Shown here piece by piece: positions 50,577-62,785 of a DNA stretch of 64,000 nucleotides. Position numbers and translations under genes: made by a program. The DNA is from Patescibacteria group bacterium (GTDB lineage: Bacteria > Patescibacteriota > Microgenomatia > UBA10105 > UBA927). The DNA is taken from the NCBI GenBank assembly GCA_023379025.1, contig JAMCTH010000010.1:9088-73087 (forward strand), read 5' to 3'. Within the stretch, counting starts at the first letter, position 1. Each line of letters starts with the position of its first letter. Under the pieces are notes generated by a model. That model had not been told where the DNA came from. It saw only the letters and a program-made list of their open reading frames with translations, and did no database searches.

Positions 50577-51485
50577 TCAATCATGTGTTCCGGATTGATC
50601 ATGGCTGTTCTTCCCCTGGTTCTCTCCCTCACTCTGCTGCTGTTGCGTCCGCCCTGAATTGTTTTGATGATCACTCCCTTCACTCTTCCCGGAATTTGAC
50701 CCGCTACGATTTCCTGATCGGGATGTCGTATCGGAAATCTGCTGCATCTCTGCAATCGTTTGATTGATAACCTGCTGCGTCTGGTCTATTTCCAATGCCG
50801 CGGACACAACCGGAGCGGAAGTTGCCGGCGACCCGGCGGTAACCTCCGCAACGGTCGGGTGTTGTACCGGTGTAGCAGTCGGGATAGGCGGGGGCACCGT
50901 GATCCGGGTTGTAGGTCGGACAGGAATCTGTGTTGGCATGACGACCGTCGTCGGTCTTGGAGGAGGGGCAGGAACAGCGCCCGTCTGTTGGCTCCCTCCT
51001 GTTGCCGGAACAGGCGGAGTTGGAGCCGGTGTAGCTGGAACCACACCGGTTAATGATTGTTTTTGCTGCTCAAGCTGTGCCGAAGCCTGGGTCAGGACCG
51101 CAATATACTGCTGTGCCGCGGCCGCCTGTTCTGCGGGGTTGGATCCGCCGGCGATCGTTTTACCCGCCGCTTCCACCTGGTCGGTAAGATACGTCATCCC
51201 GACCACGGAATTTTTGTCGGCGAGGAGGGTGGTTGCTTCCGCAAGGCGCCGCTCGGTATATTTCATCTGGAGCGTACTGGAGGCCACGTATGACGGACTC
51301 ACCACATACGCGAGCGCTCTCTCAAGGCCCAGTTTTGTTGCATACGTACTGTCTCCCGGAAGCGCATTCCATGTGCCGACGATGAGGAGTGTCGGAACGG
51401 AAAATACGAGCAGGAATGCCCAGACGAACGAATCCAGAAAGTTACGCATCTTCTTTAGCGTATGGGAGGACGGGAGATCTGTCAA
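50577..51485 (-). CDS. membrane-anchored hypothetical protein with Pro-rich linker and S/G/Q/N-rich low-complexity tail
   Basis: 302 aa; TM helix (VWAFLLVFSVPTLLIVGTW), PTPAPTPPVP linker, C-terminal SRSGNRSGSNSGKSEGSDHQNNSGRTQQQQSEGENQGKNSHDQSGTHD. Confidence 0.55.
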   Translation of the reverse strand: MTDLPSSHTLKKMRNFLDSFVWAFLLVFSVPTLLIVGTWNALPGDSTYATKLGLERALAYVVSPSYVASSTLQMKYTERRLAEATTLLADKNSVVGMTYLTDQVEAAGKTIAGGSNPAEQAAAAQQYIAVLTQASAQLEQQKQSLTGVVPATPAPTPPVPATGGSQQTGAVPAPPPRPTTVVMPTQIPVRPTTRITVPPPIPTATPVQHPTVAEVTAGSPATSAPVVSAALEIDQTQQVINQTIAEMQQISDTTSRSGNRSGSNSGKSEGSDHQNNSGRTQQQQSEGENQGKNSHDQSGTHD

Positions 51486-54766: not shown

Positions 54767-56167
54767 TTACGGAACGGGAAATTGTTTCGTCAGGGTTTTC
54801 ACCGCTTTTCCGATGGTTCTCAACCGGCTATTTGACGAGAGTTCGGATCTGACCTTCCGCAGATACGCCTGCCGTTCACCCTTATCTTCGGGGATCTCAT
54901 ACTGTGCCACCTCCCCCAGGATCTCTATCATCCACCGGGCGACGGCCTTCATCTCTTTCTCCTTCATCCCGCGGGTCGTAACCGCGGGCGTGCCCATACG
55001 GATGCCGGAGGGATAAAACGAAGAGCCGGTTTCATACGGGACGGTGTTCCTGTTGACGACGATATCGGCATACTCGAGCGCCCAGGCCGCGATCCAGGCA
55101 GACGTTTTGACGCTCCGGAGGTCCAAAAGAACAAGATGCTTATCTGTTCCTCCGGAAACGACGTCGAATCGCGCTTTGACAAACGCGTCTGCCAGAATCT
55201 TCGCGTTGACGATGACCTGCCTGCTGTAGGTTTTGAAAGACGGCTGCATCGCTTCCGCGAGGGCTACGGCGATACCTGCGATTGTATGCTCATGCGGCCC
55301 GCCCTGAAGACCCGGAAATATTGCCTGATTTACCCGTTCCGCAAGATCCTCCGTGCCTTGCGTCGACTTGACGTGTTTCGGAGTATGACGCGTAAACACC
55401 AGCGCCCCGCGGGGTCCCCTGAGTGTTTTGTGCGTCGTCATCGTAACGGCATCCGCGTAAGGAAATGGTGACGTATTGAGGCCCGACGCAACGAGTCCCG
55501 CTTCATGGGCAATATCGGCAAGATAATACGCGCCGACGTGACCGGCAATTTCTCCCATCCTTTTGTGATTGATTTCCCTGGGATATGCCGTGCCGCCGGA
55601 TATGATGAGTTTTGGATGCACGGACCGGGCCTCCCGTTCAATTGCATCATAATCAAATACCCGGGTCTTCCGGTCAACTTTATAAAAAACCACGTTCCAG
55701 ATTTTTGAGGCGAGAGTGACTTTCTTCGACGGAAGCTGCCAACCGTGTGAGAGGTGTCCGCCGTCCGGCAGGTACATAGCCATGATCGTCTCTCCGGGAA
55801 GAACGAGCGCGCTCACGACGGCGAGGTTTGCCGGACTTCCGGACAGCGCCTGAACATTTACTTCCCATGCGCTTTCCGAAAGACCGAAAAGAGAAAGTGC
55901 GCGCTTCTTGCAAAGCGCCTCAAGTTCATCGACCACACGGTTTCCCTGGTAAAACCGTTTCCCGACCTGACCTTCGGCATATTTATTGATGAAGACCGAC
56001 GACACTGCTTCCCGAACCGCTTTTGAGGTATAGTTTTCACTCGGGATCATCTCTAAAACCTCCCGTTGGCGCTTGGTTTCTTTCTGGATAATTGTATAAA
56101 GCTCAGGGTCCTGGACGTTAAGGATCATGCGGCTCATCATAGGCGATTTTACCGCAAAGTACAACAA
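54767..56167 (-). CDS. glyA: serine hydroxymethyltransferase
   Basis: 466 aa (start may be M10/M14). PLP-lysine region TTHKTLRGPRG and MIPSENYTS; C-terminal extension of about 45 aa. Confidence 0.92.
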   Translation of the reverse strand: MLYFAVKSPMMSRMILNVQDPELYTIIQKETKRQREVLEMIPSENYTSKAVREAVSSVFINKYAEGQVGKRFYQGNRVVDELEALCKKRALSLFGLSESAWEVNVQALSGSPANLAVVSALVLPGETIMAMYLPDGGHLSHGWQLPSKKVTLASKIWNVVFYKVDRKTRVFDYDAIEREARSVHPKLIISGGTAYPREINHKRMGEIAGHVGAYYLADIAHEAGLVASGLNTSPFPYADAVTMTTHKTLRGPRGALVFTRHTPKHVKSTQGTEDLAERVNQAIFPGLQGGPHEHTIAGIAVALAEAMQPSFKTYSRQVIVNAKILADAFVKARFDVVSGGTDKHLVLLDLRSVKTSAWIAAWALEYADIVVNRNTVPYETGSSFYPSGIRMGTPAVTTRGMKEKEMKAVARWMIEILGEVAQYEIPEDKGERQAYLRKVRSELSSNSRLRTIGKAVKTLTKQFPVP

Positions 56168-56178
56168 CCGTCCGTCCG

Positions 56179-56787
56179 TTACTTCCGCTCGCCGAGATGT
56201 TCGACCATAACCCGCAGGGGTTTGCCGCGGGGCGAAAACGTGACCCGCAGGCAGTCGGTCAAGCCTATGTATTCCTTTTCAAACGGCATCCTCGTATAGA
56301 GCGGTTTCCCGCCGTATTTGAATTTGACGCTCATGATCGGGTCGCCGTGGGAGACGACTACGATCTCCTCCCCCCGATACCGCCTGACCAGTTCCCTGAT
56401 GGTCCGGTCCATGCGCCGGAAGACATCGCTCAACCGTTCTCCCCCGGCGCGGATAAGGTGTGGCTGGAAAAAACGGAAGTGTATGGATTCCATATAGGGT
56501 AAGGGTTTTCCCTGGAGCGGCGTTTTGATATCCATAAGCCTGTTATCCGTCAAAACGGTGAGGTGGTGCGGCTTGGCGATGATCTCGGCAGTTTCCCTGG
56601 TGCGGGTCAGCGGGCTTGCGACAACGGCAGCGATGGGTTTGCCGGAAAGCGCCCGTGAGAGAACCTCTGCCTGCTTCCTCCCGCGCGGGCTCAGCGGAAA
56701 CCCCGGCAATCTCCCGTGAAAAATATTTTCCGGGTTTTCAAATTCTCCATGCCGACAGAGATAGACGATAGTTCCGGATCCTTGCAT
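56179..56787 (-). CDS. histidine phosphatase (phosphoglycerate mutase-like) family protein
   Basis: 202 aa; catalytic RHGE (LCRHGEF) and downstream His (SHGD). Confidence 0.8.
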   Translation of the reverse strand: MQGSGTIVYLCRHGEFENPENIFHGRLPGFPLSPRGRKQAEVLSRALSGKPIAAVVASPLTRTRETAEIIAKPHHLTVLTDNRLMDIKTPLQGKPLPYMESIHFRFFQPHLIRAGGERLSDVFRRMDRTIRELVRRYRGEEIVVVSHGDPIMSVKFKYGGKPLYTRMPFEKEYIGLTDCLRVTFSPRGKPLRVMVEHLGERK

Positions 56788-56806: not shown

Positions 56807-57547
56807 CTACCTCTCAATAGGTAGACTACCACCTTCAGGTGCCAATTGATTCCCTTCAAATGATTTACCGAGCGCATATCCTGCAAATAACCGGACCTGA
56901 CGCAGGAATTCATGCTCTGAAATGAGATGATTGTCTATCGGACAATATCGTTCACCTAATTCTGCTCTTTCTCTCTCTCTAAAACCGGCACTATCTCCGA
57001 ACCAGTCCATAAAATCAGCTCGTGAGATGGCATGGGGTCGCGCGTCATTTCTCGCAAAACGTGTGTCGACCGGTGAACGGATATCCAGAACCCAGGAATC
57101 TTCAAGCAATCCATGCGCACGCAGTCCATGGAGTAGCCAAAAAGGCGACTGATGGGCGGCAGGAGCTTCCGGTCCATAATCCATATCTTCTCCGTATGCC
57201 CATTCGACAAGGATGCATGCATCCCCGGAACCCTCATTTTTTTGAAACTCAACCAGTTCTCGAAGGATACGGTCATGCGCTCTATTGATCGTTTCCCCGT
57301 CCAGCGGATGAACCTGAAGTGATCCGATTTCCTCTCCTCCAATAATTTCGGCATGCAACCCATGGCTCACACCGTCTCCTACCTCGACATCGGCGACAAC
57401 CTCCTCATCGAATGCGATTTTATCATTCCAGATATACGCCCTCATACCCTGAACTTCCGCCAAAAATTCTATATGACTTACTGCTGCCGATTTACCGGCA
57501 CCCGACTGCCCGACAAAAAATAGTATATTCATGGCGTTTAGATACAA
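56807..57547 (-). CDS. P-loop NTPase, putative nucleotide/nucleoside kinase (paralog A)
   Basis: 246 aa; Walker A GQSGAGKS. Shares D-G-x-x-(L/I)-N-x-x-H, (I/V)LV-E-x-A-x-G and (L/I)D(I/V)-x-(S/A)P(V/L)(D/E) blocks with the two upstream ORFs. Confidence 0.65.
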   Translation of the reverse strand: MYLNAMNILFFVGQSGAGKSAAVSHIEFLAEVQGMRAYIWNDKIAFDEEVVADVEVGDGVSHGLHAEIIGGEEIGSLQVHPLDGETINRAHDRILRELVEFQKNEGSGDACILVEWAYGEDMDYGPEAPAAHQSPFWLLHGLRAHGLLEDSWVLDIRSPVDTRFARNDARPHAISRADFMDWFGDSAGFRERERAELGERYCPIDNHLISEHEFLRQVRLFAGYALGKSFEGNQLAPEGGSLPIER

Positions 57548-57577
57548 AACATCCCGACCGATCCAAATCCGTTTCTT

Positions 57578-58360
57578 CTAAAGCTCAGGATGGGGCCTAC
57601 CCACCCCTTCCAGACCAAGTTGCGGCATGATAAAATCATGAAATGCGGCCTCTATCTGTGTCATGTATATAGATGCTTCTTCCCGTGTTCTTCCCTCATT
57701 TAAAATTAGTCTATAATCTTCTCCTAAACGGGAAATGTCCTCGTCAGTCATATATCCTGCATCAAAAAAATAATCCCGAACTACATCCTCTGGTACTGCA
57801 TTTCCTATCCGCTGAGTTACGCGCTCCACACGTTGATCGAGGGGTGCACGGATATCTATAATTGCAACCTCACCAAGAAGGTCACGCTTTTCAATCCAGT
57901 CAATGACATCAGGCCCACTTTGTCTGATTGCTTCTTCGCCAGCGGTAATCTCTTTACTCACTCCCGTTGCAACTTCTGCAACAAGAATACGTCGTTTCCC
58001 TTCATGGCCATTTCTTCGCTGTGCCATAACATGATCACGGATCAGATCAAACTGCATTGCGTGCGCCCGATTGAGTACCGCCCCGTCACGATATCCCATG
58101 GTATGATTTCCTGGAACACGTCCGTCTGTTAATGTGCTGTGGTGTCCTACTCCGACGAGATCAGGATCGTAAGGATCTCCACCCTGCCGGTCAACGACAT
58201 CCAAACGCACAGCCCATTCCAAATGGAGCCGGTCATCAGAAAGGTCTGTATCGTATCCGAGTTTCCTAAGCCTCGGTAGGACAACCTGTTGTGTCAGTGT
58301 TGTCTTCCCTGCCCCCGCGTGTCCGAGGGCGATAAGGACGGATTTAGGTTGACCATTCAT
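57578..58360 (-). CDS. P-loop NTPase, putative nucleotide/nucleoside kinase (paralog B)
   Basis: 260 aa; Walker A GHAGAGKTT; RDGAVLNRAH, ILVAEVATG, IIDIRAPLDQR blocks. Confidence 0.65.
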   Translation of the reverse strand: MNGQPKSVLIALGHAGAGKTTLTQQVVLPRLRKLGYDTDLSDDRLHLEWAVRLDVVDRQGGDPYDPDLVGVGHHSTLTDGRVPGNHTMGYRDGAVLNRAHAMQFDLIRDHVMAQRRNGHEGKRRILVAEVATGVSKEITAGEEAIRQSGPDVIDWIEKRDLLGEVAIIDIRAPLDQRVERVTQRIGNAVPEDVVRDYFFDAGYMTDEDISRLGEDYRLILNEGRTREEASIYMTQIEAAFHDFIMPQLGLEGVGRPHPEL

Positions 58361-58380
58361 ATTTTAATTCTGATTCTCTT

Positions 58381-59097
58381 TTAACGTAATTCACCCTGTA
58401 TTCGGCCTTCATTGCTTAATCTTGGTGATACAATGTCCGTATATATTGTCTCTACTTCCCGTGCAAATCGCACCGGATCATGATAGCCGTTTTCTAATCG
58501 ATGAAAAAAAATACCATGAGCTTGTGCCTCCAGTGCGTCTACTTCTCCGCCATCCTGAAAGTACCGGCGGAATGTTTCATCATCCAGTCCGTCCGGTCTT
58601 CCGGAGTTCCGCAGAGCGCGAATTTCAAGGGGAGCTTCCACATCTAAAAGAAACAATCTGCCACCGGCACGAGTCTCATGAATCCCTCCCAGAAGTGATG
58701 ACCCATCTTGCAACAGTCTCTCTTTCCCCGGACCAAATTCTGCAACAGGGCCGGTAGCATATTCGACGATAACTACTGCTCCTTCTCTTTGCTGATTCCC
58801 GACATACGCAATCATTTGTTCGTGCACTTCGTTAAGTAATCTGCCGTCAGTAACCCTGAACTGCCTATGCCCCGCAGGGCCGTCATTTAAGAGAATGCTA
58901 TGATTCCCACGTAAACCTTCCGATCCGATCACTTGTCCGCGATAAGCAACATCGAGAAGTACTGCTTGCTCAAGCCAGGTTCTGTCGGATACCGTCATGA
59001 CAGTGTATCCGTCTCTCGTCAGCAATACCTCAAAAAGATCTACCACCTCTGATTTACCTGATCCGGATTTTCCAGTAACAAATAGAGTATCTATCAT
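58381..59097 (-). CDS. P-loop NTPase, putative nucleotide/nucleoside kinase (paralog C)
   Basis: 238 aa; Walker A GKSGSGKS; TDGRLLNEVH, VVIVEYATGP, LLDVEAPLEIR blocks; 4-nt overlap with tdk. Confidence 0.65.
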   Translation of the reverse strand: MIDTLFVTGKSGSGKSEVVDLFEVLLTRDGYTVMTVSDRTWLEQAVLLDVAYRGQVIGSEGLRGNHSILLNDGPAGHRQFRVTDGRLLNEVHEQMIAYVGNQQREGAVVIVEYATGPVAEFGPGKERLLQDGSSLLGGIHETRAGGRLFLLDVEAPLEIRALRNSGRPDGLDDETFRRYFQDGGEVDALEAQAHGIFFHRLENGYHDPVRFAREVETIYTDIVSPRLSNEGRIQGELR

Positions 59098-59744
59098 CCC
59101 TTATAGATTGTGTGGCAGGAAGAACAGACTGCTATGTACCGTGCTGTGACGCCGCCGGTTGTTCCGATCGACTGCTCGGTGCCGCCGGATACGCGCTCGG
59201 TGTGTTCGGCGCGTCCGCCGCATTTCACGCATATGCTGTACTGCTCGATACATTCATCAGCCATATTCATGAGGGGACGCGTTGCGCCGAACTCTTTCTT
59301 GCGAAAATCGTAAATAAGGCCATTGAGATATACATCAATCCCCTGGTTAAGAAGTGTGCGGACCACGTTGATAAACCGGTCGCGGGGGAAAAAATGGATC
59401 GCGTCGATAATGACTTTTTGGATCCCATCGCGGCCCACATAACCGAGTATTTTCTCCGGCTCATGCATACCGATATAGATGACCGGAAGCGGCCGCTCAT
59501 CGTGAGACCGGGTATGTCCCATACCACCATTACTTTTAGCTTCCGCCTTAAAACAGAGGATACTGAAACCAAGATTTGAGAGTACGGAAAAGAGAGTCAG
59601 GAGCTTTGTGGTTTTCCCGGCAAACATGGGCCCGGCGATGACCGTAAGTTTGCCTTTTGTTTTTGTCTGGGTCGCGGATCGCGCCTTTCGTCCGGAAAGG
59701 CTTGTGGGCTTGGCGGGAGTTGATTTATGCGTTTTTTTTCGCAT
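59094..59744 (-). CDS. tdk: thymidine kinase with Lys-rich N-terminal extension
   Basis: 216 aa. P-loop GPMFAGKTT; C-terminal Zn ribbon CVKCGGRA...CSSCH. About 30-aa basic N-terminal extension. Confidence 0.9.
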   Translation of the reverse strand: MRKKTHKSTPAKPTSLSGRKARSATQTKTKGKLTVIAGPMFAGKTTKLLTLFSVLSNLGFSILCFKAEAKSNGGMGHTRSHDERPLPVIYIGMHEPEKILGYVGRDGIQKVIIDAIHFFPRDRFINVVRTLLNQGIDVYLNGLIYDFRKKEFGATRPLMNMADECIEQYSICVKCGGRAEHTERVSGGTEQSIGTTGGVTARYIAVCSSCHTIYKG

Positions 59745-60372
59745 CCGGCGGTTCCAATCGTTTACGGACTACACCCCAAATAATGGATGCCACCGCTTCC
59801 ATATCCTTGGTGGCATCAACAACAACATACCGCTCATGATACTTTTTTGCAAGAGCCAAATACCCCCCATGAACCCGGAGATAAAAATCTTCCTCTTGCA
59901 CATCTAACCGGTCAATCTTCGTGTCGTTACTTCGCCGGCGCAGTCCGCTTTGGACGTCCATAAAAAGAAGTATGGTCAGATCCGGTACCGCGCCGTTTAC
60001 CGCAAGTGCGTTGAGTCTCAAAACAACATCCGGTCCGAGCCGGCGGCCGTATCCCTGATATGCAATGCTGCTGTCAAGATACCGGTCGGAAATAACTATG
60101 TTCCCGGCGGCCAGGGCGGGACCGATAACCTCACGTACATGCTGGGCGCGCGATGCGGCCATGAGATACGCTTCCGCGACAGGATCAAGGTCTACATTTT
60201 CCCGGCTATGGGTAATGGCACGGATCTCTTCACCGATACGCGTGCCTCCCGGCTCGCGGGTCACCACGGGGTCATACCCTTCTTCTTTGAGCCTGCCGGC
60301 AAGCGCAAGGGTCTGCGTCGATTTTCCCGATCCCTCACCGCCCTCGAATGTGATGAATAGCCCGTGTTTCAT
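59725..60372 (-). CDS. tmk: thymidylate (dTMP) kinase
   Basis: 215 aa; P-loop FEGGEGSGKST, DRYLDSSIAYQG (DRY/LID region). Confidence 0.9.
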   Translation of the reverse strand: MKHGLFITFEGGEGSGKSTQTLALAGRLKEEGYDPVVTREPGGTRIGEEIRAITHSRENVDLDPVAEAYLMAASRAQHVREVIGPALAAGNIVISDRYLDSSIAYQGYGRRLGPDVVLRLNALAVNGAVPDLTILLFMDVQSGLRRRSNDTKIDRLDVQEEDFYLRVHGGYLALAKKYHERYVVVDATKDMEAVASIIWGVVRKRLEPPDAKKNA

Positions 60373-60378
60373 ACAGTC

Positions 60379-61008
60379 CTAGTGTAATCCGGATGCTGGC
60401 AGAGAAGCAACCGCGGCGAGTATGTGTTCATGAATTTCGTCAATACCCGCTGATGCATCGATACGCGTGTGGGGAATATGACGGAGAACGTCCGCATAGG
60501 TCTTCCGTTTTTGAGAAAGAAGCTTAACCGATTCAAATGTGCCGATCGGTTCACCGGTCTTGGCATGCCGCAGGTTGATCCTCGTGAGGGCCCGGTCCGG
60601 AGCCATATCAAACCAGAAAAAAAGATCGGGTGACGGTTCGAATGCGGAAAATGCATCGCGTATCCGGTCACGTTCCTTTGTCGTTTTCCCCTGATAGACA
60701 AGTGCGCTCACCCAATTGCGGAGCGATATCACCCATGTACCACGGGCAAGCGCCGGCTCAAGCGTTTTCCTGACCATGCTTTCCCGGTCCGCAAGGAGAA
60801 GGTATAACTCACAGAGATGATCAATCTTTCTCGATCGCCTCCAGGCGTGAAGAACGGTCTTGAGTTCCGGAGACGGGTGGTACAGGAGTATGGCCGGCTG
60901 ATGACGGGTTTTGAGATGCCGTACCAAAAGTTTGCCCTGGGTTTCTTTGCCCGTCCCCGATATCCCTTCAAACACGATATAGTTCCCCCGGTGCATAGTG
61001 GCGTTCAC
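60379..61008 (-). CDS. thymidylate-kinase-like paralog
   Basis: 209 aa; P-loop FEGISGTGKETQ, LRNWVSALVYQG in place of DRY...AYQG; tandem to tmk. Confidence 0.75.
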   Translation of the reverse strand: MNATMHRGNYIVFEGISGTGKETQGKLLVRHLKTRHQPAILLYHPSPELKTVLHAWRRSRKIDHLCELYLLLADRESMVRKTLEPALARGTWVISLRNWVSALVYQGKTTKERDRIRDAFSAFEPSPDLFFWFDMAPDRALTRINLRHAKTGEPIGTFESVKLLSQKRKTYADVLRHIPHTRIDASAGIDEIHEHILAAVASLPASGLH

Positions 61009-61664
61009 CTCCCGATAAGGACGTCCTTTAGGGCATAGACGGTCGGAAGCGTGATGTCGGCAACATCGCTCGGCGTCTCCGACCAGACGAGGCAGGTATG
61101 CATCCCAAGGGCGCGGGCCGGCGCAAGGTCCACGGCGGGCCGGTCGCCGATCATCATATGGGAGGGCGCCGGAAGACCGGTATGTTTCATGATATACCGG
61201 AAACCCTCAACTGACGGTTTTGTCACCCCGACGGTTTCCGATGTCACCATAAGTTCAAAGGTTTCTTTCGGAATACCAAGAACGGCAAGTGTCTCGATGT
61301 GCCTTGCGATCACGCCGTTGGCGAGGATCATGTGGCGGTACCCGTGAAGCGAGCGGAACAGTGAAATGAGCTTGGGATCGCGTTTCAGGAAGTCGCGCCG
61401 GTCGAAATACCGTTCCATTTCAACGGCAGACTCGGCGACGGTCTGACCCGTCAGTACGGAAACGGTTTCCGTCGCACTTTGGATCGTCACTTTATACCGC
61501 GCTTTGAATTCACGGTCGGTCCGGTCGTAGTCCCACCCCGTATGAGCCATGATCGTTGTATATTCCGCCTGCCGCACCGCGGCAAAAAGCGCGGGATTCG
61601 GCCGGTAGAATGTACCGTCAAAATCCCATATGAGAACCCGTACGTCGGAAAACTGGGCATTCAT
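61005..61664 (-). CDS. HAD-family hydrolase, probable (deoxy)nucleotidase
   Basis: Track ORF 61005-61826 would overlap the upstream gene by 136 nt. Internal start MNAQFSDVRVLIWDFDGTFY at 61664 gives motif I DFDGT, later TKPS and MIGDR (motif IV). Confidence 0.7.
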   Translation of the reverse strand: MNAQFSDVRVLIWDFDGTFYRPNPALFAAVRQAEYTTIMAHTGWDYDRTDREFKARYKVTIQSATETVSVLTGQTVAESAVEMERYFDRRDFLKRDPKLISLFRSLHGYRHMILANGVIARHIETLAVLGIPKETFELMVTSETVGVTKPSVEGFRYIMKHTGLPAPSHMMIGDRPAVDLAPARALGMHTCLVWSETPSDVADITLPTVYALKDVLIGR

Positions 61665-61690
61665 AGATGGTATGTATTGTAGCAGACTGG

Positions 61691-62437
61691 TTATTTTTTC
61701 CGAGGCAGGTGTAAGCGTTTGGCGACCTGACCGATAAGCATCGCCTGCGCTTCCCGGCTCCGGACGATATTGAGTCCGTCCGTCTGTATGATAAGTACGG
61801 GAATCGTGCTGTTGGCTTTCAGCCAATCATGGTTGAGTTTATCAAGAAGCGCCAGATAAGACTCCGGTATTTCCTGTTCGTAGCTCCTGCCGCGGGAGGC
61901 GATACGGCGCTCTAATACCGGGACACTCGTATCAAGATACACAAAAAGCGAGGGCTTCGGAAAGTAGGGTTCAAACGAAGTATATATTTTCTGATACAGC
62001 CGCCATTCGGCATCATCCATATGTCCCAGCATATGCTGCGCCCTGGCATAACTATAGACATCCTGTTCAATAGGAGTATCCTGTATTATTCCCGGACAGT
62101 TTTTCCCCCACTGGGGATCGTTCACTTCGCTCAGGACGCGTGCCGCATCCAGAATCTGCCGCGTTTTTTCCATAAGGAAAAACGTCTGAGAATGAAAGGC
62201 CCAGCGATCCATTTCGCGGTAGAAACGCGGTAAGAATACGTTTTCCCCGAAGTTTTCCTCAAGAAGCGTAAATCCGAAAGTTTCCGAAAGTAGCCGGGCC
62301 GCGGTCGTTTTGCCGCTTCCCATCGAGCCCATGACCGAAAGGTAGAGTCGCCGCATTACTGTCTGTTGTAACACACATCCGAACGCATGAACAACGGCGA
62401 AAAATTGACATCCGACGACGGAATACCTACCATACAC
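61691..62437 (-). CDS. deoxynucleoside kinase (dCK/dGK family)
   Basis: 248 aa; P-loop GSMGSGKTT, ERR-type LID motif LERRIASRGRSYE, and QD/E-rich substrate region. Confidence 0.85.
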   Translation of the reverse strand: MYGRYSVVGCQFFAVVHAFGCVLQQTVMRRLYLSVMGSMGSGKTTAARLLSETFGFTLLEENFGENVFLPRFYREMDRWAFHSQTFFLMEKTRQILDAARVLSEVNDPQWGKNCPGIIQDTPIEQDVYSYARAQHMLGHMDDAEWRLYQKIYTSFEPYFPKPSLFVYLDTSVPVLERRIASRGRSYEQEIPESYLALLDKLNHDWLKANSTIPVLIIQTDGLNIVRSREAQAMLIGQVAKRLHLPRKK

Positions 62438-62785
62438 CTACGGGCACACATGATTGTGTACCCCGGAAAGGAGGCGGAACAAAGATCGGCAATTGCAGTT
62501 AAAAGCGTGTGGCCCCCTCTTTTTACGTAAAAAAGGGGGGGATACGAGGCAGGGGATCCCGAGCTCCAGCGAGGGAAATCGGACTTAGCAGAGAGAAAAC
62601 CGTAGGTTGTCTCTCCTAAAGCATCTGCGGAAACCCCTTGGCGGCACTTCCCGCCAGAAGAAAAACCGGAAAACGCTTTCGGTAACGGGAGCACTAAATG
62701 GCTTTTCACGAAGTCCGTATCTTCTTTATCATCACCATTCTGTCTTCTTTTCCCAATAATTGTTCGGGCATACTGGAGGTACTAT

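Follow-up and report, generated by a model that had tools for sequence, protein, structure and literature searches.

Bacteria of the Candidate Phyla Radiation (CPR; Patescibacteria) are generally reported to make no nucleotides de novo and to rely on salvage. In T4 polynucleotide kinase (T4 Pnk), D35 is the conserved Asp after strand 2. T4 Pnk, O-phosphoseryl-tRNA kinase (PSTK) and KTI12 share with the genes studied here a Walker A motif, an Asp straight after strand 2 and a pairing with a phosphatase. A further precedent comes from Sulfolobus, where PPK3 consists of two adjacent paralogous tmk-like P-loop kinases that share an operon with SixA, a histidine phosphatase superfamily protein (bioRxiv 10.1101/2024.08.28.610084). 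We analyzed a stretch of 64,000 nucleotides (the window) from contig JAMCTH010000010.1 of a Patescibacteria group bacterium (assembly GCA_023379025.1), in which three adjacent genes, here called P1, P2 and P3 (Table 1; residue numbers follow P3), encode divergent paralogous proteins. We concluded that P1-P3 are a new family, unmodelled in the tested libraries, inside the well-known P-loop kinase superfamily. We lean slightly toward the view that they are ATP-dependent phosphotransferases for nucleoside- or nucleotide-type small molecules, encoded in a salvage operon and working jointly with the histidine phosphatase next to them. We describe homology, fold, conserved motifs and synteny below, and from them we infer the kinase activity and the cooperation with the phosphatase; it is synteny alone that points to the substrate class, nucleoside or nucleoside monophosphate (NMP).

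A sequence-only reading of the window had picked out three open reading frames (ORFs), a Walker A motif at the start of each and an identity of about 25-30% among the copies. The ORFs are present, all on the minus strand, and so are the motifs (Table 1). Pairwise BLASTP gave 28% identity for P1-P2 (E = 8e-12), 29% for P1-P3 (E = 7e-20) and 26% for P2-P3 (E = 3e-16), with the divergence evenly distributed over the protein length; with E values in this range the paralogy is real. The shared blocks of the same reading are not alignment artefacts: as D-G-x-x-[LI]-N-x-x-H, hhhE-x-A-x-G and hD[IV]x[AS]P[LV][DE]xR they are kept in 71 relatives from other genomes. Two details of them had to be relaxed, in that P1 has Ile and not Leu in the first block and the second block was written slightly too strictly for P2 (ILVAEVATG) and P3 (VIVEYATG). 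The family motifs of the first half are GxxGxGK[ST] and, directly after strand 2, [ST]D[RK]xxLE; GxHS and DGxLLNxxH sit in an inserted hairpin/helix subdomain; and the second half carries hhhExAxG (strand 3), hh[DE]hxAPxxxRxxRNxxR (strand 4 plus lid) and a C-terminal hxN. Among the 71 members K15 and R160 are invariant, and conservation is at least 90% for G9, G14, D38, E112, G116, R167 and N203. The presumed catalytic residues are retained in all three window copies, and P1, P2 and P3 look catalytically competent.

The sequence-only reading had called the family unrecognised, and library searches agreed. P1, P2 and P3 gave sub-threshold matches only, mostly in the P-loop region: no curated cut-off was reached in Pfam-A or NCBIfam, and the PHROGs and PADLOC matches were weak. 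In a Pfam scan of the 71 members none reached any gathering score. Signatures of AMP, CMP, UMP or GMP kinase or of deoxynucleoside kinase, which that reading could not find, were likewise missing at profile level: for NMP kinases (Adk/Cmk/Gmk/Tmk) there was no Pfam or NCBIfam match above cut-off for the trio, nor a Pfam match above cut-off for the 71 members, and P1-P3 had no profile match to dNK (PF01712) or TK1 (PF00265). The best AAA_33 score among P1-P3 was 18.5 bits vs a cut-off of 27, and KTI12 and AAA_33 matched only weakly, in 10 and 16 of the 71 members, respectively. Zeta_toxin (PF06414) reached 12.2 bits, under its cut-off of 22.3, and matched no more than the P-loop region. Zeta toxins had been proposed from the sequence as one alternative, and zeta-toxin-like toxins or non-catalytic regulatory P-loop NTPases might be suspected from weak P-loop-region Zeta_toxin matches in six of the 71 members and from zeta-like Foldseek matches (TM-score ~0.4) in a viral structure library. 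The catalytic-type residues are strongly conserved, however, no antitoxin-like neighbour was seen in the contexts examined, and the genes lie inside a conserved housekeeping-type operon across divergent genomes. On these last two counts we rejected a zeta toxin identity, and we regard the alternative as a whole as extremely improbable.

The family is small, and its members here come from metagenomic contigs only. A word-indexed homolog search returned almost no relatives, and an exhaustive HMMER profile search was required; among 1.84 billion representative proteins it found 90 relatives at E ≤ 1e-3 and 75 at E ≤ 1e-10. Their usual length is 230-260 amino acids (aa), with exceptions that include the two fused doubles P0004 (522 aa) and P0047 (489 aa) and a fusion to an HD domain (P0080). 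Nine of the ten outside clusters looked up were singletons and the tenth had two members, all from metagenome assemblies. Family-derived patterns matched 600 places in GTDB genomes, with no true relative among them, and PDB sequence-profile searches with family alignments yielded mainly Walker A matches (midasin, ABC transporters, RecA). NCBI labels all three proteins (MCL4360626-28) 'hypothetical protein' of Patescibacteria group bacterium, and no description of this family was found in the literature searched.

The AlphaFold2 model of P3, made from the 71-sequence alignment, has a pLDDT of 93.9 and a pTM of 0.90; that of P1, made from three sequences, has a pLDDT of 81. The elements of the P3 model follow the order b1-a1-b2-a2-hairpin-a3-b3-a4-b4-lid-b5-a. 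Foldseek against the PDB returned P-loop kinases exclusively (probability 1.0, TM-score ~0.45-0.53, root mean square deviation 5-9 Å, 10-17% identity), among them archaeal adenylate kinases (Adk), dephospho-CoA kinase (CoaE), chloramphenicol phosphotransferase (CPT), a sugar kinase, APS kinase, PSTK, UCK2 and Tmk. Archaeal Adk was the best structural match to the P3 model (TM-score 0.53, 13% identity), and the viral structure library gave CPT-like proteins, PNK, zeta-like proteins and dTMP kinases, all with TM-scores ≤0.52. The features that mark the P-loop kinase superfamily (sensu Leipe et al. 2003) are present: a Walker A GxxxxGK[ST] after strand 1, a parallel-sheet core and an Arg-rich lid after strand 4. 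The P-loop NTPase assignment made from the sequence was upheld by model and Foldseek as a kinase fold, not a GTPase or AAA fold. Since the neighbours are all P-loop kinases yet distant, the fold class is settled, and none of the known families stands near enough for its substrate to be carried over. Archaeal Adk, dephospho-CoA kinase, CPT and APS kinase share with the family the five-stranded P-loop kinase core and lid, whereas the family is ~40-60 residues longer and has no family-specific motif in common with them beyond Walker A.

We next consider the lid segment. When the PDB was searched with a profile lacking the first 27 residues (32-member alignment), the sole match was archaeal PSTK; it spans strand 4 and the lid and, at E = 0.36, is not significant alone. 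In hhalign comparison with the T4 Pnk kinase domain (the sequence used is 100% identical to record X03007.1) the lid was chosen and not the P-loop, with family segment EAPLEIRALRNSGRP-DGLDDETFRRYF and a probability of 85.5%; the operon's dNK and tmk, and the PRK-family (uridine kinase-type) protein of another locus (L002), were aligned through the P-loop only. The lid shared with T4 Pnk (by hhalign) and PSTK (by HMMER) can be written (D/E)-x-P-x5-6-RN-x-x-R-x3-4-(I/V)(P/D)-x-x-x-(F/L). At the level of motifs, R163-N-x-x-R167 aligns to RNSKR of T4 Pnk and to the PSTK lid, and D38, at least 90% conserved, stands where PNK, PSTK and KTI12 have their Asp. Because of the lid likeness and the Asp after strand 2, the family is nearest to the hydroxyl-directed kinases of the PNK/PSTK/AAA_33 group; because profile thresholds failed, we did not file it as a member. 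The polynucleotide-kinase-like alternative of the sequence-only reading thus gained some motif-level support from the RNxxR lid and failed at the profile thresholds; its zeta-toxin alternative gained no such support.

The same evidence bears on whether the genes form a polynucleotide end-healing pair, in which the kinases, like T4 PNK, would add phosphate to the 5'-OH ends of RNA, DNA or oligonucleotides, and the phosphatase would remove a 3'-phosphate or 2',3'-cyclic phosphate, in nucleic-acid repair or in the processing of imported nucleic acids. The lid, the conserved Asp (compare D35) and an obligatory kinase plus phosphatase pairing that resembles PNKP architecture all fit, as does the L010 member, whose neighbour is a fusion of an AAA_33/KTI12-like kinase with HAD. 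Against this stand the shortness of the lid match and Pfam scores for AAA_33 and KTI12 far under their cut-offs; the TM-score to PSTK is 0.42-0.47, and the family has an extra beta-hairpin subdomain, with GxHS and DGxLLNxxH, that sets it apart from PNK, PSTK and KTI12. Its phosphatase is a separate His_Phos_1 protein, unlike the fused HAD of T4 PNK, and several paralogs are unlike known PNKP systems. Ligase, Hen1 or nuclease partners were not seen in any context examined, and the recurrent neighbours are mononucleoside or mononucleotide enzymes, in a neighbourhood of mononucleoside salvage. We consider an end-healing pair acting on polynucleotides unlikely.

The strongest functional evidence for the family is synteny. 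Loci from other genomes carrying relatives are numbered L001-L015, and eight core contexts were compared (window, L001, L002, L003, L004, L006, L012 and L014). The co-orientation of the trio with nucleoside-salvage genes, already noticed in the sequence, proved to be part of a cluster conserved in distant relatives; with these genes on the minus strand, the place of the trio is downstream (3') of tdk-tmk, and not upstream as had been thought. The order dNK-HAD-tmk(-tmk)-tdk-[family]-His_Phos_1 was found in five divergent genomes (window, L001, L004, L012, L014), the serine hydroxymethyltransferase (SHMT) proteins of which are 46-64% identical. The family position holds two copies in L001, a fused double in L004 and three tandem copies in L014; in L012 one copy stands on each side of the phosphatase. 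SHMT is usually nearby (also in L001, L004 and L014; absent from L002, L003 and L012). L002, L003 and L006 have a single family copy directly beside His_Phos_1; near it, L002 and L003 also have a PRK-family gene. The operon's own dNK, TK1 and Tmk share the operon with the family and plausibly the pathway, and dNK and Tmk share the superfamily too, whereas the Pfam dNK, TK and Thymidylate_kin models do not match the family.

His_Phos_1, the most consistent partner and one that the sequence-only reading overlooked, adjoins the family in all eight core contexts (8/8). These eight phosphatases are one orthologous group of ~200 aa, 33-67% identical, with the N-terminus RH[GAS]xxxNPxxIxxGRLPGFxLS. 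The nearest PDB entries to the window phosphatase are PspA 4ij5 and PhoE 1ebb; in the PDB comparison PspA phosphoserine phosphatase gave E = 6.5e-15 and the FBPase-2 domains of PFKFB E ~1e-6. A P-loop kinase of ~250 aa with a His_Phos_1 phosphatase is the architecture of PFKFB, and the trio could accordingly be non-nucleotide small-molecule kinases with their own phosphatase, either a split PFK-2/FBPase-2-like couple or a serine/phosphoserine pair feeding SHMT. PFKFB3 is indeed among the Foldseek matches of P1 (E = 7.6e-5, weak at TM-score 0.47), the phosphatase matches FBPase-2 domains and, more strongly, PspA, and SHMT is immediately 3' of the phosphatase in the window. Yet PFKFB is not among the top 50 Foldseek matches of the better P3 model, and 6PF2K is neither among the Pfam matches reported for the trio nor among the 25 most-matched families of the 71 members. 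The family's kinase and phosphatase are separate genes, its neighbourhoods hold mostly nucleoside/nucleotide enzymes, and the SHMT adjacency is inconsistent. A non-nucleotide substrate therefore seems to us quite improbable.

More distant contexts were also inspected. In L010 (2629-6486) the family member is followed by the kinase-HAD fusion mentioned above (418 aa, PNKP-like architecture), a 365-aa HD-tmk fusion, tmk, PRPP synthetase and dNK. In L015 (550-2939) it and the start of a Glycos_transf_3 gene (531 aa; thymidine/AMP phosphorylase family) overlap, a connection, in another lineage, between the family and the phosphorolysis of nucleosides or AMP. P0080 (L007 1370-2764; also L008 and L009) is a distant member (E = 7.7e-9) of 464 aa, with the kinase-like domain fused to an HD phosphohydrolase; in L007 a 287-aa radical SAM gene comes next and then a protein of more than 900 aa, a context different from the core operon and possibly nucleotide-modifying. 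Since both core and distant contexts show them, nucleoside/nucleotide enzymes together with a phosphohydrolase are the common theme.

The sequence-only reading had taken the trio for an old triplication kept in place. The antiquity of the paralogs was supported and the fixed triplet was not, as relatives occur in one, two or three copies per genome or as a fused double. A neighbour-joining tree gave three groups, a P3-type clade ('SDR'), a P1-type clade ('TDK/DDK') and a small P2 group; because it splits the copies into distinct paralog groups, the duplication is ancient, and judging by the tree the family has at least two ancient paralog types. The N-half of the fused P0004 is P3-type, and its C-half falls in the P1-type clade by tree with a slightly higher BLASTP score vs P2. 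Walker A variants, GHYSAGKG (without Ser/Thr) and GKPGGCKS (last Gly to Cys), occur in L001 3972-4661, the N-half of P0004, P0015, P0023, P0035, P0063 and P0072, and tend to fall in the first copy of a pair or fusion; they suggest non-catalytic or altered subunits in some genomes. Such copies, the fused doubles P0004 and P0047 and the Sulfolobus precedent of paired P-loop kinases with SixA could together be read as a heteromeric or polyphosphate-linked nucleotide kinase like archaeal PPK3, the paralogs forming a catalytic plus regulatory complex that interconverts polyphosphate and nucleotides. The two systems do share adjacent paralogous P-loop kinases and a histidine-phosphatase-superfamily gene. 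The PPK3 subunits (cPPK3/rPPK3), however, are of the tmk family with a DRX motif, whereas the trio family has E-x-A-x-G on strand 3; no member reaches the Pfam tmk cut-off, with a weak tmk match in only 2 of 71, and the 25 most-matched families listed for the 71 members do not include PPK2. All three window copies have canonical catalytic motifs, and there are no ppx or CHAD genes in any context examined. We think a PPK3-like complex very unlikely.

If the trio are kinases of nucleoside- or nucleotide-type small molecules, Walker A (K15, S/T16) would be the site of ATP and Mg binding, D38, the near-invariant Asp that follows strand 2 ('SDR/TDK'), would be a general base or substrate ligand, E112 on strand 3 would take a Walker-B-like role, and the lid helix R160-x-x-R163-N-x-x-R167 would close onto the phosphates. 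Each copy would move the gamma-phosphate from ATP onto its small molecule, the acceptor being either a hydroxyl (nucleoside or 3'-NMP) or a phosphate (NMP or dNMP). The trio would share one transcript with dNK, tdk and two tmk genes, in an operon for (deoxy)nucleoside salvage, and would act jointly with the histidine phosphatase encoded directly downstream; the paralogs may take different substrates or form a hetero-oligomer, fused doubles being known elsewhere. A further, quite improbable reading is a 'mononucleotide end-healing' salvage, in which the kinases and His_Phos_1 would turn nuclease-derived 3'-(d)NMPs into 5'-(d)NMPs. The kinase, T4 PNK-like on minimal substrates, would phosphorylate the 5'-OH of a 3'-(d)NMP to the 3',5'-bisphosphate, and His_Phos_1 would strip the 3'-phosphate, so that 5'-(d)NMP goes straight to tmk and other NMP kinases; base or sugar specificity would be supplied by the paralogs.

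Several observations weigh against a nucleoside or nucleotide kinase function. No sequence or structural neighbour is near enough to lend its substrate (TM-score at best 0.53, 10-17% identity). The P-loop apart, the sole likeness is with the lid of two enzymes of nucleic-acid-linked substrates, T4 polynucleotide kinase and PSTK, and the phosphatase is as much like phosphoserine phosphatase and PhoE as anything nucleotide-specific. A simple 'one paralog, one base' scheme is disfavoured by a copy number of 1-3 and by degenerate Walker A motifs elsewhere; we rejected a fixed triplet with one paralog per base, since copy number varies between genomes.

Because uncharacterised kinases fill up to three slots of a core DNA-precursor salvage operon, together with a dedicated phosphatase, they mark a testable gap in CPR metabolic reconstructions. 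Knowing their substrates would complete salvage maps for CPR organisms, would add a new specificity class to the superfamily of P-loop kinases and might yield new biocatalysts for making nucleotide analogues. The fold and general chemistry of the family are ordinary, and its obligatory phosphatase partner is unusual. If true, end-healing of 3'-(d)NMPs would be a previously undescribed recycling of host nucleic-acid breakdown products by genome-reduced episymbionts without de novo nucleotide synthesis. The great rarity of the family, 90 clusters among 1.84 billion representative proteins, limits its general impact.

Table 1. The three family members and the genes around them, with positions in the window (HMM, hidden Markov model).
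Feature	Position	Strand	Details
P3, family member	58381..59097	-	238 aa; Walker A GKSGSGKS encoded 59050-59073; D38, E112, lid R160/R163/N164/R167; family HMM E 3e-81
P2, family member	57578..58360	-	260 aa; Walker A GHAGAGKT encoded 58301-58324; family HMM E 9e-61; NCBI MCL4360627.1 'hypothetical protein'
P1, family member	56807..57547	-	246 aa from TTG; Walker A GQSGAGKS encoded 57488-57511; family HMM E 2e-59; NCBI MCL4360626.1 'hypothetical protein', 241 aa
Histidine phosphatase His_Phos_1, RHG motif	56179..56787	-	Pfam E 5e-32; 19 nt 3' of P1; NCBIfam matches generic only
Thymidine kinase tdk	59094..59744	-	Pfam TK E 3.5e-25; directly 5' of P3 in transcription
dTMP kinase tmk	59725..60372	-	Pfam E 9e-49; TIGR00041 187 bits
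Second, divergent tmk-like kinase	60379..61008	-	Pfam E 3e-24; TIGR00041 94 bits vs cut-off 83
HAD-IA hydrolase, possible nucleotidase	61005..61826	-	Pfam Hydrolase/HAD_2; pyrimidine 5'-nucleotidase matches below threshold
Deoxynucleoside kinase dNK	61691..62437	-	Pfam dNK E 5e-40; first gene of the cluster
Serine hydroxymethyltransferase glyA	54767..56167	-	NF000586 483 bits; 3' of phosphatase

Transcription on the minus strand runs in the order dNK, HAD hydrolase, tmk-like, tmk, tdk, P3, P2, P1, His_Phos_1, glyA. The P3 ATG overlaps the tdk stop (ATGA) and is preceded by a Shine-Dalgarno AAGGGA, and the other intergenic gaps are 19-45 nt; the overlap and short gaps are consistent with a single operon. 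In a promoter and terminator scan of 54-63.5 kb, sites were no more numerous than in shuffled sequence. P1 probably starts at the ATG at 57532 (241 aa, also the NCBI call) rather than at the TTG at 57547, and the true start of the HAD hydrolase is probably inside the listed ORF. The NCBI gene call for P3 (MCL4360628.1, 205 aa) begins at Met34 and misses the Walker A (window 58999-59097, minus strand); a separate Logan gene call, P0093, has 238 aa, the same length as the full P3 ORF. Plus-strand overlapping ORFs (e.g., 58422-58757 and 57833-58132) were rejected, being short, and homologs back the minus-strand frames.

The two tmk genes stand in tandem, and the same duplication is seen in L001 and L012. 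The divergent copy matches 5-hmdU DNA kinase 2 weakly (E = 0.012) and may differ in specificity (compare the tmk-like PPK3 pair of Sulfolobus). In the divergent intergenic region 5' of dNK, a glmS glucosamine-6-phosphate ribozyme is found at 62493-62716 on the plus strand (Rfam RF00234, 51.3 bits vs gathering 37, E = 9e-10), which presumably leads a plus-strand glmS gene extending beyond the window. A divergent glmS-like gene (GATase plus SIS) also flanks the dNK operon in L004 and L012. Farther away, just 3' of an rseP-like protease gene, a minus-strand ORF at 50577-51485 (302 aa), with no obvious function, has a hydrophobic N-terminal segment and a long low-complexity tail rich in Pro, Thr, Ala and Gln.

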